DNA of 64,000 nt from Minisyncoccota bacterium (GCA_036405415.1 DASWXP010000002.1:272351-336350), one strand, 5' to 3'. Positions 12,914-63,803 are shown, counted from the stretch's first letter. Program-made: numbers and translations. Notes: a model not told the origin generated them from the letters alone.

Positions 12914-12985
12914 TGCCCCCGCCAGGAGTCGAACCTGGATTTAAGGTTTAGGAAACCTTCGTTCTATCCATTGAACTACGGGAGC
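12914..12985 (-). tRNA. tRNA-Arg (anticodon CCT), no encoded CCA
   Basis: Manual cloverleaf: acceptor GCTCCCG/CGGGGGC, anticodon stem AAGGT/ACCTT, loop TTCCTAA (U33, A37), T-arm CCAGGTTCGACTCCTGG. Confidence 0.8.
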
Positions 12986-13624
12986 TTAGGCAGATAGTAC
13001 CCTTTTGGATGCTTCTTTTCCAATCAGCTGGATTGCACTTTGGATTACTAATCTCTCACGGATACCGGACCGAACACGAATCCTGCACATACCATACTGA
13101 AGCTTTCCTTTCTTTTTCCCTTTAATTATTTCAACTCTATTAATCCTGCTAGCTGGGACATTAAGGGTGCGCGACCAGAATTGGCACGCATGTGGTTCCG
13201 AGATATCTGCATGTAGACGCAGTGACAACGAGATTCTTTCTCGAGGGATTCCCATGTCATCTAGACAGCCCAAGAATGCCACCAGCAGGTTCGGATCAGA
13301 GTTAATTACAGAGAAATCCTTCTTAGTACCTTCGCCCCAATAGAGACCAATTAGCAGGAAGAGAGTGTCACGTGTATTAATCTCGCCGATGAGACCTTTT
13401 GCCCTTTCTAGCGAGTTCTCTCTTAATCCCAAAGCGCGCTCTTTTCCGCCGCCTTGCTTCTCCCGCAGTAACCTCCGCGCTTCCTGGGAAATCGGAACAT
13501 GCTTCACGTAGCGTTGTATGGTGGTCTTTGCCATTCCTGTCTCTCGAGAGATTTCAGGAATACTCATGCCTTGGAGCCTGCGCGCAACTATCATCAGTCT
13601 CGCCTCCTCAGACATCCTTTTCAT
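12986..13624 (-). CDS. Low-GC HTH-domain protein with degenerate LAGLIDADG-like motifs (possible freestanding homing endonuclease or mobile gene)
   Basis: About 47% GC against about 62% background. N-terminal HTH (ARRLQGMSIPEISRETGMAKTTIQRYV), then LIGLYWGEGTK and FLGCLDDMG motifs. The stop codon abuts the 5' end of tRNA-Arg. Confidence 0.5.
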   Translation of the reverse strand: MKRMSEEARLMIVARRLQGMSIPEISRETGMAKTTIQRYVKHVPISQEARRLLREKQGGGKERALGLRENSLERAKGLIGEINTRDTLFLLIGLYWGEGTKKDFSVINSDPNLLVAFLGCLDDMGIPRERISLSLRLHADISEPHACQFWSRTLNVPASRINRVEIIKGKKKGKLQYGMCRIRVRSGIRERLVIQSAIQLIGKEASKRVLSA

Positions 13625-20529: not shown

Positions 20530-20844
20530 GGACCCTGGCCTGACGACCGCTGCCCTAGGCAGAGGAAAGTCCGAACACAGGCTCACCTTGTGTGAGCAGT
20601 CTGGTAGCAGGTAACGCCTGTCCGCCGTAAGGCGCGAGGTGCGAACAGAAACGACGGATGCCGAAAGGCTACGTACTCTCCTTTGGAGAGTGTCCTAAGG
20701 GCGACCTTAGGCTGAAACGGCTAAATCCTTACCGCTGTGCAAGGCCGTGCCCATCATTGTGTGGGAGCGCCGCTCGAGGTGCGTGGCGACACGCATCCCA
20801 GATAGATGGTCGTCCGCGACAGAATTCGGCTTATGACCAGGATC
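20530..20844 (+). ncRNA. rnpB: RNase P RNA, bacterial type A (rnpB), compact form
   Basis: Conserved AGGAAAGTCCG (P4 5' strand), GGTAACGCC, AGGGCG and the 3' ACAGAATTCGGCTTAT (P4 3' strand). P1 pairs GGACCCTGGCC with GACCAGGATCC. A terminator follows at 20853. Confidence 0.7.
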
Positions 20845-20852
20845 CGCTTACA

Positions 20853-25320: not shown

Positions 25321-25329
25321 GTTATCCAC

Positions 25330-25358
25330 AGTATAGGAATGAGGGTTTAGAGCGTCAA
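25330..25358 (-). promoter_or_regulatory. groESL promoter, TTGACG-N17-TATACT (minus strand)
   Basis: -35 at 25353-25358 and -10 at 25330-25335 on the minus strand, upstream of the IR and groES. Confidence 0.5.
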
Positions 25359-25862: not shown

Positions 25863-26567
25863 ATGAAAGAAGGAAGTCCATTTACAGTGGTAAGCGAACC
25901 AAAGCGTTTTTCACCCGAGGATATGGTTGCGGCAGGAGAAGCTTTTGCTACTAACCCAGTTCAGTCAGAATCAGAGCCTGCCGAGATGTTTGATAGAAGC
26001 GGCATGGCCACACTTGGCGAAAAACTTGCTTCAGAGACTGCGGAATCAGTTTCAGCGGCAAACGAAGCTACCGTAGTACAGCTTAGCGAGGTCAGAGAGC
26101 GACTACGAGGACATGTCGAAACAGCGGTGGAAACGGCACCTTCCGCTCCCGAGACTTATGCAGAATCACCGGAAGCCACTCCAGAACAGATAGATACGTT
26201 CCTCCGTAAGGCATATGGCAGTGATGGATACAAAAACCATTCAGGCATCTACAGTGACAGCACGCCTGCAGAAAAGTTCGCGCACGTGATGCAGTCTCGC
26301 GAAAGCCTAGCAAGCTCAAGCAGGAAATCGACATCATGGTTCGCAGGTATTCTGAGCTCGGGAGCTGGCTTGGGTGCCGTAGCGGCTTTGGGTCTCACCG
26401 CGATTCCCGCTGCAGTTGCTGCGCCACTGCTTGCTGGACCTGCAATCGGCTATGGAGCTTACAGACTCTTGAAGTGGAACTTTAATCGGCAGCAGCGCAA
26501 ATTTGCTCGAGAAGCAGAGGAGCTCGGAATCACGACTGCAACCACTCAAACACGACTCGCTGCGTAG
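25863..26567 (+). CDS. Islet gene 2: hypothetical protein (234 aa), acidic disordered N-region plus C-terminal TM hairpin
   Basis: About 50% GC against 62% background and no SD. C-terminal WFAGILSSGAGLGAVAALGLTAIPAAVAAPLLAGPAIGYGAY is hydrophobic. Confidence 0.5.
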   Translation: MKEGSPFTVVSEPKRFSPEDMVAAGEAFATNPVQSESEPAEMFDRSGMATLGEKLASETAESVSAANEATVVQLSEVRERLRGHVETAVETAPSAPETYAESPEATPEQIDTFLRKAYGSDGYKNHSGIYSDSTPAEKFAHVMQSRESLASSSRKSTSWFAGILSSGAGLGAVAALGLTAIPAAVAAPLLAGPAIGYGAYRLLKWNFNRQQRKFAREAEELGITTATTQTRLAA

Positions 26568-39355: not shown

Positions 39356-39417
39356 GTCCCTATAGTACCAAAGCCGCTCCTTAAGGGAGCGGCTTTGGTC
39401 TCAACCGGTGCGAAGAG

Positions 39418-43890: not shown

Positions 43891-43943
43891 GGTCGGTAAA
43901 ATAAAAATGCCCCGAGGGCGATAAAGACAGCCTTAAAATACCT

Positions 43944-44294
43944 TTATATAGGTGATGCGTCAATTACGTATTGCTCGGGCGTCCATGCGGGCGTGCATGC
44001 TATCACGAGCGTAAGTTCGCCCTCCCAGAACACCGCCTCTCCCTTCTCTATCGTAACCACGTCTCCTTGCGAAAGCTTGCTTTCGATACCGTTTACCGAA
44101 ACGACGCCGCTGCCCTCAGTTACGTACACGAGCTCCCGAACCGCTTTATTTATCGCATTCCCCTCAACCGGATATCGTCCTCGTATCTCAATCCGTGCGA
44201 CGTTGATATCGCTTCCTCCGGTCTCGTACTCGAACGCCGTGCAGGTGCCCGCGTTCTCAAACCTTCCTGCTTCGTTCTTCCGGATTATCTTCAT
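43944..44294 (-). CDS. Cupin domain protein
   Basis: 116 aa with a small beta-barrel pattern. Overlaps the def stop by 4 nt, suggesting an operon. Confidence 0.65.
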   Translation of the reverse strand: MKIIRKNEAGRFENAGTCTAFEYETGGSDINVARIEIRGRYPVEGNAINKAVRELVYVTEGSGVVSVNGIESKLSQGDVVTIEKGEAVFWEGELTLVIACTPAWTPEQYVIDASPI

Positions 44295-44827
44295 GCCTTT
44301 TCCTTTAGAAGCTTTCTGAGCTCCTTCTGCGTTACCAAGGTCTTAATGTCCGTCATGCGGTCGACATACACAACACCGTCTAGGTGATCAAGCTCGTGCT
44401 GGAAGATGCGTGCCCAGAACCCCGAGAGCTTCTCGCGTATCTTCTCGCCGTTCTCATTCACGTATTCAACCTGGATCCATTTGGCGCGAGGCACGCGGCC
44501 GAACGGCCCCCTGAAGCTGAGACATCCTTCCCAGTCCGTAACGCTCAAAGGTGAGCGTTCAAGGATTCTGGGATTGATGATGGTGAGCGGACCCATACGC
44601 TCCGTTTCAGGTCTTCTCTTTATAGGCCGCATCTCCATAACTGCTACCCGCAGAGGCCTCCCTACCTGCGGTGCGGCGATACCCACGCCGCCCGTACGAC
44701 GCATGGTGTAGATCATCTGCTTGATGAGACTCTGGAACTCTGCCGAGCGAATCGTTCCAAGCGGCACATTCTTGGTCCTGGTCCTCAGGATAGGGTTCCC
44801 GAACTCGGTACGCGGGAGCACTTTCAT
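44291..44827 (-). CDS. def: Peptide deformylase
   Basis: GVGIAAPQVG, GCLSFRG and HELDHLDG motifs. The ATG is 6 nt after TGGTATACT. Confidence 0.9.
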   Translation of the reverse strand: MKVLPRTEFGNPILRTRTKNVPLGTIRSAEFQSLIKQMIYTMRRTGGVGIAAPQVGRPLRVAVMEMRPIKRRPETERMGPLTIINPRILERSPLSVTDWEGCLSFRGPFGRVPRAKWIQVEYVNENGEKIREKLSGFWARIFQHELDHLDGVVYVDRMTDIKTLVTQKELRKLLKEKA

Positions 44828-44913
44828 GCGGAAAGTATACCAGCGTTAAATTAATAATTGACTCGATGTATCTAAGGCATTAGGCTTTAGCCGGATCAAA
44901 AAGGAGTAATGCG

Positions 44914-45507
44914 ATGTCAGAGGAATATGCCTATAAGGGCGATCCTCTGGGATCGCCAAAAAGATACTGCCGTGTTTGTGGAAAGACTCTTTCTGCATAC
45001 AACAGGAACAAGCAATGCTTTCATCATGCCGTCGACGAGACGGTTCGTCAGGAGCGGAAAATCACAACATCAGTAGCTATCCTTCCGGTTGTGCGCACTG
45101 CCGTTCGTTCAGGGCCGCCGAAGGTGAAACGTATCGTTCCAAAACCTGCAGTTCAGCAGGCGGCGCGACAAACGGCAGTGACGAGCGCGAGTGCACTTGA
45201 GCTTCCGAAGCGGAGATTCCCGTCTCAGAAAGCGATCGCCAGCGTTGTGTGTACCTGGTTTGGCGTTGAATTCGAAGATGTGGTTCGCGAGGATAAGCAC
45301 GCACGAATCTCGCACATACGAAACATCCTCATGTATCTCCTGTATAAGGACTCAGCGGGTTCGTATCAATCTGTCGTGGAATTCCTGAATCGGAAAAACC
45401 ACACAACCGCAGTAGCTGCGGTTAAAAAGATCGAGACCCTGTGTTCTTATGACAGACGGCTCCGCTGCGAACTGTGGCTTATGCGGAGGAAATACAGAAT
45501 CAAATAG
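44914..45507 (+). CDS. Standalone DnaA domain-IV (Bac_DnaA_C) HTH protein with N-terminal zinc ribbon
   Basis: C-terminus (ARISHIRNILMYLLYKD...SYQSVVEFLNRKNHTTAVAAVKKIE) matches the DnaA DNA-binding domain. N-terminal CRVCGK...CFHH. About 50% GC, with an SD AAGGAG. Confidence 0.65.
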   Translation: MSEEYAYKGDPLGSPKRYCRVCGKTLSAYNRNKQCFHHAVDETVRQERKITTSVAILPVVRTAVRSGPPKVKRIVPKPAVQQAARQTAVTSASALELPKRRFPSQKAIASVVCTWFGVEFEDVVREDKHARISHIRNILMYLLYKDSAGSYQSVVEFLNRKNHTTAVAAVKKIETLCSYDRRLRCELWLMRRKYRIK

Positions 45508-45533
45508 CCGGTAATCTTCGGATTGCCGGCTAT
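45505..45533. terminator. Bidirectional hairpin ATAGCCGGTAATC-TTCG-GATTGCCGGCTAT
   Basis: 13 bp stem with 1 mismatch between convergent genes. Confidence 0.5.
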
Positions 45534-45543
45534 TGCTACTTTA

Positions 45544-46560: not shown

Positions 46561-46581
46561 GTATGCGGTATTGTACCAGCC

Positions 46582-61261: not shown

Positions 61262-61627
61262 CTACTGCGCGTACCAGGCCTGCATCCAGTCTTTCATCAT
61301 CTGGATCTCTGAGGCCTGCGCGGAGAGTATGGCCTGTGCGAGATCCTTGATCTCCTGATGCTTTGCGCTCATGAGCGCCGCCTCTGCCATCTCAATAGCA
61401 CCCTCATGATGCGCGATCATCTCTTCGAGGAACGCCTGATCAAACGCGTCTCCGGTCTTTCCCTCTAAAGACTGCGTCATGTGTTCCATCTCGGCATGCA
61501 TATCACGGGAGCCATGCGACATAGGCGCATCATCTCCCACTTCTTTCCCGGTAACGGCCATGACGGCTCCAGCACCGATAACAACACCTATTGCGCCCAC
61601 GACGATGGTTTTGACGGTTTCGTTCAT
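61262..61627 (-). CDS. DUF305 domain protein (periplasmic, four-helix-bundle type)
   Basis: HHEGAIEMAE and MMKDWMQAW motifs with an N-terminal anchor. Likely co-transcribed with mntP. Confidence 0.7.
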   Translation of the reverse strand: MNETVKTIVVGAIGVVIGAGAVMAVTGKEVGDDAPMSHGSRDMHAEMEHMTQSLEGKTGDAFDQAFLEEMIAHHEGAIEMAEAALMSAKHQEIKDLAQAILSAQASEIQMMKDWMQAWYAQ

Positions 61628-61676
61628 GCGGAAAGTATACCAGCGTGGGTCAAAAGTTCCTGCTTAAGGCTCTGGA

Positions 61677-62387
61677 TCAGCGCATGGGCACCTCGATGAG
61701 GATTACCGAAGCAGAATCTGTTGCAGAAAGAGTTATCGACTCAAACTCTGATACCCCTAGGCCGTCTCGTGCGCCAAATTCTATATCTCCGACCGTGACG
61801 CTTCCCCCAACCACAAACACATAAACCCCGTGCTCTTCGGTGCGCAGAGCATATGACAAAGGATGCGCGGCATCGATTCTTGCATAAGAGATATAGGCAT
61901 CTTGCTGAATGGGCAGCGAACCCTCGCGCCCTCCCTCGCTCGCTAAAAGCGCTATGCCCGGAGCCTGCTCTCCAAGATTAAATGCCTTCTGCGCGTAGTT
62001 GGGTTCGCTGTTGGGCTTATTGGTCTCTATCCATATCTGAAACAGCGTCAGCGGTTCTTCCTCTGACTTATTCTCTTCTGCGTGTGTCACTCCCGTCCCC
62101 GCAGACATAACCTGTACGTCGCCTGCCGGAACGTCAAAAGAATTTCCGAGGCTATCGGTATGCGTAACCGTTCCGCCCGTTACGATGGTAATGATCTCCA
62201 TGTCCCTATGGGAATGCGCACCGAATCCCGTTGAGGGCGCGATCTGGTCGTCGTTCAATACGCGCAGCTTGCCGAAGCCCATCCGGGTTGGATCGTACCA
62301 GTTCGCAAAGCTGAAGCTATACCTAGTTGATAGCCATCCGTAGTCTCCCCCGCCTCGTGTGGTTGATCGATGTAGTAGCGTTTTCAT
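61677..62387 (-). CDS. Pirin family protein (bicupin)
   Basis: HSHRDMEIITIV metal-binding motif and bicupin length (236 aa). Confidence 0.85.
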   Translation of the reverse strand: MKTLLHRSTTRGGGDYGWLSTRYSFSFANWYDPTRMGFGKLRVLNDDQIAPSTGFGAHSHRDMEIITIVTGGTVTHTDSLGNSFDVPAGDVQVMSAGTGVTHAEENKSEEEPLTLFQIWIETNKPNSEPNYAQKAFNLGEQAPGIALLASEGGREGSLPIQQDAYISYARIDAAHPLSYALRTEEHGVYVFVVGGSVTVGDIEFGARDGLGVSEFESITLSATDSASVILIEVPMR

Positions 62388-62423
62388 ACTCTGATTGTTT
62401 AGATAGTATTCGAGCTAACCTGA

Positions 62424-63266
62424 CTATTTGATGCCGTAGAAATCGTAGAAATCCTGGATATTTCCATGAGCCGTTCGAGGCGGCATTGGGAGCGCATCGG
62501 CAAGTCTGTCTAGCGGCACCTCCCTCGCTTTCTCAAGGAACTCGTCTGCGAGTTCCTGTTTGAATCCATACTCACCGGGCTTCTTATCTTTTCCTCCGAG
62601 GAATTGGCCCCATATGGCAAGTCCCCGATCCCAACGCTTGGGCTGGTAGTCTATTCCTCCAACAATAAAGGTATCTGGATAGAGACGCCGATATGCTTCA
62701 AGATTATAGAGGTTCGTGCATCCTCGAACGTATCTTGCGTCAGGATGCTTTTCTTTTACTTCGCGGAACATTTGTGCGAGCTCGCTTTTCCTGCGTTCTA
62801 GTTTTTCTTTACTGAGCGGCCCTGTTGAGACGAGTTCCCCATCCTTCCATTCCTCATCGGCCTCACCGTTAAAGAAGTGCACGCGCACAGTCTTTGTGTC
62901 CTCCTCATAATCATAGGAAGAGCAGCCAAAACGTCCGTCCTCTTCATTCCGATATGGCACACCCTTCATGCCATAGCTCTTTCGACGCTCGAGCTGCTCT
63001 GCATACCCGGCCTCAAGTGCGTTCTCGTCAGTTATGCCTGGCAGGAGCTCTTTCTTGCCATCTTCAGTACGTATAGCAGCGTTAAGGAGCGGCGCGTACT
63101 GCTTGATAGCTTCGATAAGCGGCAAGTCTTGACGCTCTGCCATGAGCTTCGCGAACGCGAATTGCGTATCAAATAACCCCTTTGGATAAACAAATTGGAG
63201 ATTGTCTTTCCAGTACTCGGGCGTCTGAATCGATTCAGATTTATGGAGCTGTGGTGAGTGTTCCAT
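62424..63266 (-). CDS. Hypothetical protein (280 aa), lower GC (about 50%)
   Basis: Long ORF with coherent coding periodicity but atypical composition. No family recognised. Confidence 0.5.
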   Translation of the reverse strand: MEHSPQLHKSESIQTPEYWKDNLQFVYPKGLFDTQFAFAKLMAERQDLPLIEAIKQYAPLLNAAIRTEDGKKELLPGITDENALEAGYAEQLERRKSYGMKGVPYRNEEDGRFGCSSYDYEEDTKTVRVHFFNGEADEEWKDGELVSTGPLSKEKLERRKSELAQMFREVKEKHPDARYVRGCTNLYNLEAYRRLYPDTFIVGGIDYQPKRWDRGLAIWGQFLGGKDKKPGEYGFKQELADEFLEKAREVPLDRLADALPMPPRTAHGNIQDFYDFYGIK

Positions 63267-63398
63267 GCCACCTAATTAGAGCACAAGATCTTCGAGCTGG
63301 TTGTTTGGGGCGGTATTAGAACTATTCTGTCCTTTCGCTTATTGATTTACTAGATAAGTGTGATATAAAATAAACGAACCCTGAATTGGAGAAGTTCA

Positions 63399-63803
63399 TT
63401 GGAAGAAAGCACACTAGCCATCCTGACTGAAACCCAGAGTCGACTTTCGCGGCTCATATCGGAGGAAGAGCCCCGCTACCCTCCGAGACAACTACGACTT
63501 CAATCGCCTGGTGCCGTTATTCTCGGCAGGGCATCGAGGGAGCAGCAGGCGATCGCAACGCTCTATGGACAGATCTGCACAGAGCATTGGGAAGCCCATA
63601 AAGCTTCCGGGCTCCCTGAGAAAATCACTCCTCGTGTGAGCTTCGATCATCATTACAACCATGTGGCGGCTCCCATGCTGTCCGAGTTGCTGATATGGTC
63701 GGCGCACAGGGATTACCCAGATATCTCTGAGACGATGTCCATCGGCGCAATTCAGATCGATAACGACTGGAACATGTACGCGATACCAAGAATTGCGTCA
63801 TGA
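63399..63803 (+). CDS. Hypothetical protein (134 aa), lower GC
   Basis: ORF with atypical composition adjacent to tRNA-Gln. Weak support. Confidence 0.35.
   Translation: MEESTLAILTETQSRLSRLISEEEPRYPPRQLRLQSPGAVILGRASREQQAIATLYGQICTEHWEAHKASGLPEKITPRVSFDHHYNHVAAPMLSELLIWSAHRDYPDISETMSIGAIQIDNDWNMYAIPRIAS

Follow-up and report, generated by a model that had tools for sequence, protein, structure and literature searches.

In Escherichia coli DnaA, Arg399 reads the TTA part of the DnaA box in the minor groove and the helix spanning residues 434-451 reads TnCACA, and the substitutions R399A and T435M abolish box binding (PMC5742627). Domain IV of DnaA is already known outside the initiator, as standalone DnaA_C proteins in phages and as a Bac_DnaA_C-like C-terminal extension of the TnpA_REP / TIRYT Y1 transposases of subclass 2.1.2 (bioRxiv 10.1101/279083). 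Here, we describe a gene at positions 44914-45507 (+ strand) of a 64,000-nt stretch of DNA (GCA_036405415.1 DASWXP010000002.1:272351-336350, the window) from a member of Candidatus Paceibacterota, within the candidate phyla radiation (CPR)/Patescibacteria. The gene encodes a 197-aa protein in which a DnaA domain IV is joined to an N-terminal putative zinc module (Zn-DnaA_C), and the protein may act as an accessory regulator rather than as an initiator. No description of a Zn-DnaA_C family was found in the literature on standalone domain IV, Bac_DnaA_C, Patescibacteria DnaA and phage DnaA-like proteins.

A DnaA domain IV joined to a putative zinc module

The C-terminal half of the protein (aa 101-197; 45214-45504, + strand) has the DnaA domain IV fold, comprising a helix-turn-helix and a basic loop, according to Pfam, NCBIfam, PDB, AlphaFold2 (AF2) and Foldseek comparisons. 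Bac_DnaA_C (PF08299) matches aa 107-173 (E = 2e-12; 47.4 bits against a gathering cutoff of 31.5) and is the only Pfam domain in the protein. The NCBIfam DnaA models align over their last ~90 positions only and score far under their cutoffs, as with TIGR00362 (52 bits against a cutoff of 343.9), for which the alignment is confined to model positions 344-435. In a PDB sequence search the nearest entries are those of A. aeolicus DnaA (1l8q/2hcb, E = 1.7e-7), and a profile of the family described below matches B. subtilis DnaA (8btg, 5.5e-25) and the E. coli domain IV-DnaA box complex (1j1v, 1.6e-22). The AF2 model, built with a 38-sequence alignment, has a mean predicted local distance difference test score (pLDDT) of 82, with ten-residue block means of 91-98 over aa 101-197, 81-92 over aa 11-40 and 58-70 between them. 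The modelled C-terminal domain superposes on the DNA-bound domain IV of M. tuberculosis (3pvp) and E. coli (1j1v) with a Foldseek template modelling (TM) score of 0.90 and a root-mean-square deviation (rmsd) of 1.1 Å. The recognition helix starts with H163-T164-T165, the loop carries K128, R136 is invariant, and the DnaA signature string NRKNHTTAVAAVKKIE is present. An earlier note made from the sequence had proposed a standalone domain IV on the basis of an alignment that included the basic loop and this string, and had suggested a profile search as a check; the Pfam match and the structural comparison agree with that proposal.

The rest of DnaA is missing. No AAA+ domain III (Bac_DnaA, PF00308, Walker motifs) was detected, PF08299 being all that Pfam reports, and aa 1-100 gave no Pfam match to DnaA domain I/II (DnaA_N) at E ≤ 10. 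The protein thus has the C-terminal domain IV helix-turn-helix of DnaA and neither its AAA+ domain nor its domains I/II, and the absence of the AAA+ domain rules out an identity as the DnaA initiator. The possibility that it is the end of a frameshifted or truncated dnaA, which the earlier note had named as fatal to its proposal, is excluded by the def gene (Pep_deformylase) lying 86 nt upstream on the opposite strand, by an N-terminus that is itself a conserved domain, and by the lack of any AAA+ signal. Hda and HdaA were also considered and rejected, as they are AAA+ proteins without domain IV and the present protein is the reverse, domain IV only. Six-frame hidden Markov model (HMM) scans of the window match only this open reading frame (ORF), and reveal no second DnaA_C copy and no dnaA.

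The N-terminal zinc module (aa 15-42; 44956-45039, + strand) is supported by invariant alignment columns, a leave-one-out HMM and AF2 confidence (pLDDT 81-92 over aa 11-40). Its motif is C19-x2-C22-x12-C35-x2-H38, with CRVCGKTLSAYNRNKQCFHH beginning at aa 19, and none of C19, C22, N30, C35 and H38 varies among 38 aligned relatives. The CxxC...CxHH pattern, called a zinc ribbon in the earlier note, is therefore real and conserved, but its second histidine alone is the conserved one: H37 varies, so that the ligand set is Cys-Cys-Cys-His (CCCH), with C19, C22, C35 and H38 as putative ligands. The CxxC...CxxH arrangement offers four candidate ligands as two knuckles, in keeping with a zinc ribbon or treble clef, and AF2 predicts short β bridges (residues 18 and 25) and a helical turn (residues 36-38). 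The window protein reaches 54.6 bits with a module HMM from which it was left out, compared with 9.4 bits for the best of 2000 shuffled sequences. The module has no match in Pfam or NCBIfam and a weak, recurring match to phrog_1321, a family of unknown function (E 0.0014-0.05). In HNH endonucleases a catalytic His is expected between the first CxxC and the conserved Asn; an HNH identity was rejected, as the PHROG matches are non-significant (E 0.14-0.17), Pfam gives no HNH match, and in the 20-residue module L-S-x-Y stands at the place of the catalytic His.

The two halves are connected by a basic linker (~aa 43-100; 45040-45213, + strand) that is predicted to be disordered, with an AF2 pLDDT of 58-70 and no secondary structure. 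Residues 43-104 have an isoelectric point (pI) of 12.0 and contain 13 Lys/Arg against 2 Asp/Glu. Linker length varies in the family, the distance from the zinc motif to the equivalent of DnaA R407 ranging from 50 to 172 aa with gappy alignment columns.

To compare DNA recognition, residues were numbered by alignment to 1j1v. Six positions, R399, P423, D433, H434, T435 and H439, which we take to be base-contacting in 1j1v, serve here as a lead only. The family consensus keeps all six. Among 46 members, R399 is retained in 43, P423 in 29, D433 in 40 and H434 in 43, T435 occurs as Thr or Ser in 44 and H439 as His or Tyr in 44, and R407 is present in all 46. The window protein keeps two of the six (H163 and T164), together with T165 and R136, the R407 equivalent, and differs from both E. 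coli DnaA and the family consensus at the other four (R399 to K128, P423 to Q152, D433 to N162 and H439 to A168). Its residue choice at K128 and A168 is unique among the 46 members. Judged from these residues, DnaA-box-like 9-mers are the probable target of the family in general. Because four presumed contact positions differ, the window protein probably recognises a variant of the TTATNCACA DnaA box instead of the box itself, or else binds more weakly. The search for dnaA, oriC and DnaA boxes proposed in the earlier note was made in the window, where neither dnaA nor oriC was found and a single consensus box occurs, against 0.9 expected by chance. This sole perfect box (TTATCCACA; 25322-25330, + strand) is intergenic and lies upstream of groES.

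Distribution of the fusion and of its parts

A word-indexed protein search returned only the window protein itself. A phmmer search run exhaustively against 1.84 billion cluster representatives gave 383 matches at E ≤ 1e-3, and many of the best matches (P0003, P0004, P0006 and others) are 150-220-aa proteins aligned over their full length that share the motif C-x2-C-G-x2-L-S-x-Y-N-x4-C-F-x-H near the N-terminus. Of the top 150 representatives (50%-identity clusters), at least 47 carry the zinc motif together with DnaA_C. The window protein has the composition of this family, namely a zinc module, a variable linker and a single DnaA_C (197 aa, compared with ~150-220 aa for the family), and it keeps every family-invariant residue (C19, C22, N30, C35, H38, R136 and M140). 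In neither of the two very large protein searches did any relative exceed about 40% identity. A different architecture, the zinc module with two DnaA_C domains, is seen in P0026 and P0089.

To survey genomes, a back-translated DNA pattern of the zinc motif was used, which is unique in the window and catches 25 of the 47 known fusion members. It matched 27 viral contigs of IMG/VR and, in GTDB contigs sampled at one genome per species, 44 stretches. DnaA_C is present in only two of the 71 motif ORFs (L045 and L050, both in Patescibacteria genomes), which, within the reach of the pattern, places the fusion in 2 of 185,579 GTDB species representatives; none of the 27 viral contigs carries it. The fusion is thus rare among sequenced species, though sequence-diverse, and all members with a taxonomic placement are Patescibacteria, which answers the question of phylogenetic distribution raised in the earlier note. 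The other motif ORFs are mostly 50-130-aa proteins with little beyond the zinc module, and an HMM of the fusion module, built without the window protein, matches all 71 ORFs at E ≤ 0.01. These results show that the zinc module is a conserved, independently occurring domain. It is the most novel element of the protein and, as far as we found, has not been described before.

DnaA_C likewise occurs by itself. Small phage proteins with the DnaA_C fold (~80-290 aa) account for 40 BFVD entries at E ≤ 1e-3, including proteins of Cellulophaga phage phi19:1 and Tenacibaculum phage Gundel_1; curated phage genomes gave one weak match, to the DnaA_C half only, and a plasmid collection gave none. Since both halves occur separately, they are independent, mobile modules.

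Four family members (P0057, P0152, P0115 and P0151) lie in one shared gene block, composed of genes for RNase III, a sigma-70 region-4 protein, ParB, a 378-aa protein, a sigma-70 factor, Zn-DnaA_C, a 109-aa protein and a convergent 610-aa helicase. In three of the four block loci (L080, L082 and L083), Zn-DnaA_C is directly 3' of the sigma-70-type gene, and the interval between the two carries a terminator followed by promoter-like sequence and a strong Shine-Dalgarno (SD) sequence. A family-wide conserved gene context was considered and rejected, as the sigma-70/ParB/helicase block occurs in one clade only and the contexts of L045, L050 and the window all differ.

Several further observations concern the two domains. 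P0036 (806 aa) is a complete sigma-70 factor (regions 1.2, 2, 3 and 4) fused to two DnaA_C domains, and P0051 (379 aa) combines the CCCH module with sigma-70 region 4, DnaA_C and NUDIX; on their domain assignments, both are direct physical links of the DnaA DNA-binding domain to sigma-factor domains. About 3.6-8 kb downstream of one family member (L083 10422-14445; L084 4436-7646) are genes for a large serine recombinase and a SMODS (CBASS-type) nucleotidyltransferase, joined in L083 by a PIN-domain gene, and this region looks like a mobile or defence island adjoining the conserved block. In metagenome-assembled genomes (MAGs) of Mycobacteriales, Frankiales and Actinomycetota (L007-L047), a standalone, very basic CCCH ORF of ~58 aa, with some calls longer (CAVCGERLSAYNPGPNCFVHS), is flanked by a Caa3_CtaG gene and trpD (e.g., L012 7666-7842, reverse-complement coordinates), has a dihaem cytochrome c gene close by, and seems to be a conserved small Actinomycetota protein that has not been described. 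At L019, L055, L058-L060, L062, L065, L069 and L072-L074, mostly IMG/VR viral contigs, a standalone CCCH gene stands directly 5' of the terminase genes TerS (phrog_309, 1.5e-22) and TerL (phrog_2, 7.6e-42) and the portal gene (PF12236, 2e-82), a slot in which packaging accessory factors or late regulators are frequently encoded. Of these loci, L019 is a Syntrophobacteraceae MAG contig, and its zinc-module and TerL-like ORFs are sequence-identical to those of viral contig L055.

The gene and its chromosomal slot

The coding sequence starts with ATG and specifies a protein with a pI of 10.1. An SD sequence, AAGGAG, is present at 44901-44906 (+ strand), 7 nt 5' of the ATG. An SD core of at least 5 nt precedes 7 of the 60 crude gene calls of the window, and a 6-nt core is found at this gene only. 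The GC content is 0.51, compared with 0.60 for the window, and the GC content at third codon positions (GC3) is 0.54, compared with 0.70-0.86 for most genes and ~0.76 for most neighbours. The earlier note had rightly picked out both features, the canonical SD unlike those of most neighbours and a GC content of about 50%, below that of the host. Upstream, a weak candidate promoter was picked by eye at 44858-44886 (+ strand; TTGACT 44858-44863, 17-nt spacer, TAGGCT 44881-44886), within the 86-nt divergent intergenic region common to def and the Zn-DnaA_C gene; a consensus promoter scan gave no promoter-like site there.

Downstream, a strong hairpin at 45503-45534 overlaps the stop codon between the convergent Zn-DnaA_C and mltG genes and is a candidate bidirectional terminator. 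It has a 14-bp stem and a UUCG loop, with folding energies of -26 kcal/mol on the + strand (z = -6.15 against shuffled sequences) and -22.1 kcal/mol on the - strand (z = -3.88). A terminator scan made no call at this hairpin because it lacks a clean U-run. The proposed hairpin upstream of the gene folds no more stably than shuffled sequence (z = 0.11). Of the two hairpin terminators said in the earlier note to bracket the gene, the downstream one thus stands, without a clean U-tract, and the upstream one falls. With its own SD and strong downstream hairpin, the Zn-DnaA_C gene is an independent transcription unit. The flanking genes are def, cupin, mltG and pif1, and no integrase, terminase or other phage gene flanks it in the window.

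The interval between typA and mltG (43891-45543) is a variable slot that contains this gene, cupin (43944-44294, - strand) and def (44291-44827, - strand), all three with a GC content under the window average. The GroEL encoded in the window has 100% identity to a Candidatus Paceibacterota GroEL, and its next matches, at 83-99% identity, come from Paceibacterota, Patescibacteria or Parcubacteria in every case with a stated source organism, which makes the host a CPR bacterium. Relatives were recovered by searching metagenome contigs with MltG (MltG 71-90% and TypA 91-97% identical), and six mltG-typA intervals could be inspected. All relatives keep orf278-pif1-mltG and typA, and the content of the interval varies: it spans 514-704 bp with unrelated small ORFs in L085, L086, L090 and L092, contains cupin only in L089, and def and cupin in L091. 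Neither the zinc module nor DnaA_C is present in the interval in any of the six. As the relatives keep the flanks without having the gene in the interval, the Zn-DnaA_C gene is cargo in a hypervariable chromosomal slot. The identical protein occurs on 10 Logan contigs from one sample series (SRR11449178-88), with the same gene order, and was found nowhere else; a literature search gave no description of this series. The gene was probably acquired horizontally, as the earlier note had suspected, judging from its absence in the six relatives, the lack of a near homologue, and its atypical GC3 and translation signals. The interval itself, with a different small ORF (~120-180 aa) or a cupin/def subset in each of L085-L092, is a gene-turnover hotspot.

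Other features of the window were observed in passing. Most genes lack an SD, and many have a TGGTAnnnT-like extended -10 box 6-8 nt 5' of the ATG (e.g., 44828-44847 for def, 46561-46580 for mltG, 39356-39375 and 61628-61647), suggesting widespread leaderless mRNAs. Over 20 nt, the sequence preceding def matches that preceding the gene at 61262-61627 at 19 of 20 positions. A 212-aa ORF at 12986-13624 (- strand) has an N-terminal helix-turn-helix (Sigma70_r4_2 / HTH_23) and values of GC 0.48 and GC3 0.48, below those of the Zn-DnaA_C gene; as it abuts a tRNA-Arg gene (12914-12985), it could be a further regulator gained by horizontal transfer, or what is left of a mobile element. A 234-aa ORF at 25863-26567 (+ strand) has a GC3 of 0.43 and no Pfam match, and a low-GC3 cluster at 61677-63803 (GC3 0.52-0.59) consists of a pirin-like gene and two ORFs without a Pfam match. 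A bacterial class A RNase P RNA at 20530-20849 (+ strand) scores 106.6 bits, barely over the Rfam gathering threshold of 100.

Role of the protein and relation to known systems

The reading that we favour, and to which we give about an even chance, is that the Zn-DnaA_C protein is a horizontally acquired accessory transcriptional regulator that binds DNA site-specifically and is not an initiator. In this model, the protein would bind double-stranded DNA via its helix-turn-helix and basic loop. Having no AAA+ domain and no domain I/II, it would be expected to form no ATP-dependent DnaA filament, to melt no origin and to load no helicase, and would therefore act by occupying DNA sites rather than by initiating replication. 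The zinc module, tethered through the basic disordered linker, may add a second contact, either with a protein partner, of which the transcription machinery is the best hinted, or with nucleic acid. A transcriptional role is favoured because of the sigma-70 synteny and fusions in the family and the general use of domain IV as a DNA-reading head. Several points weigh against it. No binding site, regulon or partner was identified in this analysis, and the loci examined show no enrichment of DnaA-box-like motifs near family genes. The sigma-factor synteny belongs to a clade other than that of the window, gene context is not conserved across lineages (L045, L050), and the position of the zinc module beside phage terminase genes is not specific to transcription. 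Zinc binding itself is read from the residue pattern, and the four substituted contact positions could mean weakened rather than re-targeted binding.

Alternatively, domain IV may sit on the DnaA boxes of oriC, or of sites that titrate DnaA, and prevent DnaA from assembling, making the protein a negative regulator of initiation. The family consensus, which keeps the presumed DnaA-box contacts almost intact, and a fold that superposes on DNA-bound domain IV with an rmsd of 1.1 Å are in favour of such competition, and for a protein without an AAA+ domain, binding without initiating is the default outcome. ParB genes are often near origins, and in one clade they are close to the fusion gene. However, the window protein has K128, Q152, N162 and A168 at the contact positions, including the one at which R399A abolishes box binding in E. 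coli (PMC5742627). The gene is moreover absent from close relatives and is therefore outside the core replication control of the lineage, and neither the window nor any of the family loci that were inspected has a dnaA gene or an oriC. Competition at oriC is thus unlikely for the protein studied here, and fits the family consensus better than this diverged, dispensable member. Comparably improbable is an origin in a CPR phage or integrative element, of which the fusion would be cargo or a remnant instead of a host regulator, reading an element-specific site for replication, packaging, late-gene control or interference with host DnaA. The 40 small viral proteins with the DnaA_C fold, the zinc module standing alone directly 5' of TerS, TerL and portal genes in IMG/VR contigs, and the hypervariable slot with its gene of atypical GC and SD are consistent with this origin, as are the rarity of a family that is nonetheless diverse and the serine recombinase, SMODS and PIN genes downstream of one member. 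By contrast, the fusion itself is absent from all 27 zinc-motif viral contigs, the curated phages and plasmids yielded no more than the one weak DnaA_C-half match, no phage gene flanks the window gene, whose neighbours are def, cupin, mltG and pif1, and one clade holds the gene in a conserved block with housekeeping-type genes (RNase III, sigma-70 factor).

It is also conceivable that the gene is a recent acquisition in decay or without function, with an intact ORF whose product has lost specific DNA recognition and has no host role. Four contact positions are substituted, the protein is confined to a single strain and sample series, and its codon usage is unadapted to the genome. Against this, the ORF is uninterrupted, the AF2 fold is confident, and the identical sequence recurs on the 10 Logan contigs of the series. 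Decay is very unlikely because no family-invariant residue is lost and because the gene has strong expression signals in its optimal SD and its strong hairpin on the downstream side. A broader proposal, which we regard as quite doubtful, is that CCCH and domain IV together form a new class of regulators, found so far in Patescibacteria, that couples DnaA-box-like sites to another machine through the zinc module. Two candidate machines are hinted at: RNA polymerase or sigma, to which the sigma-70 synteny and fusions point, and a phage complex for packaging or replication, suggested by the terminase adjacency. Were this coupling real, the proteins would connect DNA signals of the origin type with transcription, or would be phage-derived tools for the takeover of host replication, and the zinc module would be a new, widespread domain common to CPR bacteria, Actinomycetota and phages.

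The control of replication and transcription in CPR/Patescibacteria, which have small genomes with few recognisable regulators, is almost unexplored. The family reuses the DNA-reading head of the initiator without its motor, and its small, soluble-looking proteins are an accessible experimental target. The site suggested by the family consensus, a DnaA-box-like 9-mer, is predictable and could reveal the use of the DnaA-box signal outside initiation. Moreover, the CCCH module merits description as a domain of its own, being common to phage-like contigs (beside terminase genes), CPR genomes and a conserved locus of actinobacteria. The window gene itself is of modest significance, being an accessory gene that is strain-specific, was probably acquired horizontally and has diverged in its recognition residues.

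Compared with known systems, the protein resembles DnaA domain IV of E. coli (1j1v), M. tuberculosis (3pvp) and B. subtilis (8btg) in its fold, the H-T-T start of the recognition helix, the R407 equivalent (R136) and the basic loop, and differs from DnaA in lacking domains I-III, in its four changed contact positions and in having a zinc module that DnaA lacks. With the phage 'DnaA C-terminal' proteins (A0A6J5KJ76, R9ZYA9 of phi19:1 and A0A8E4ZDG8 of Gundel_1), which are annotated and for which no functional study was found in the literature, it shares a small size (~80-200 aa) and a domain IV fold without AAA+; this comparison covers the C-terminal domain alone (~86-120 columns), and the zinc-motif viral contigs lack the fusion. 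The standalone CCCH proteins (58-aa Mycobacteriales/Frankiales ORFs; 57-130-aa IMG/VR and CPR ORFs) have the same motif, but no DnaA_C, and lie in other contexts (CtaG-trpD or TerS/TerL/portal). CtrA, Spo0A and MtrA are origin-binding response regulators that antagonise DnaA and are regulated by phosphorylation; by analogy, they would correspond to the possible occupation of origin sites without initiation, and they differ in their unrelated folds and in phosphorylation. Like the TnpA_REP / TIRYT transposases, finally, the Zn-DnaA_C proteins reuse the domain IV helix-turn-helix outside DnaA as a DNA-targeting module, which in the transposases is carried on a HuH endonuclease core and here is joined, without any catalytic domain, to a zinc module.

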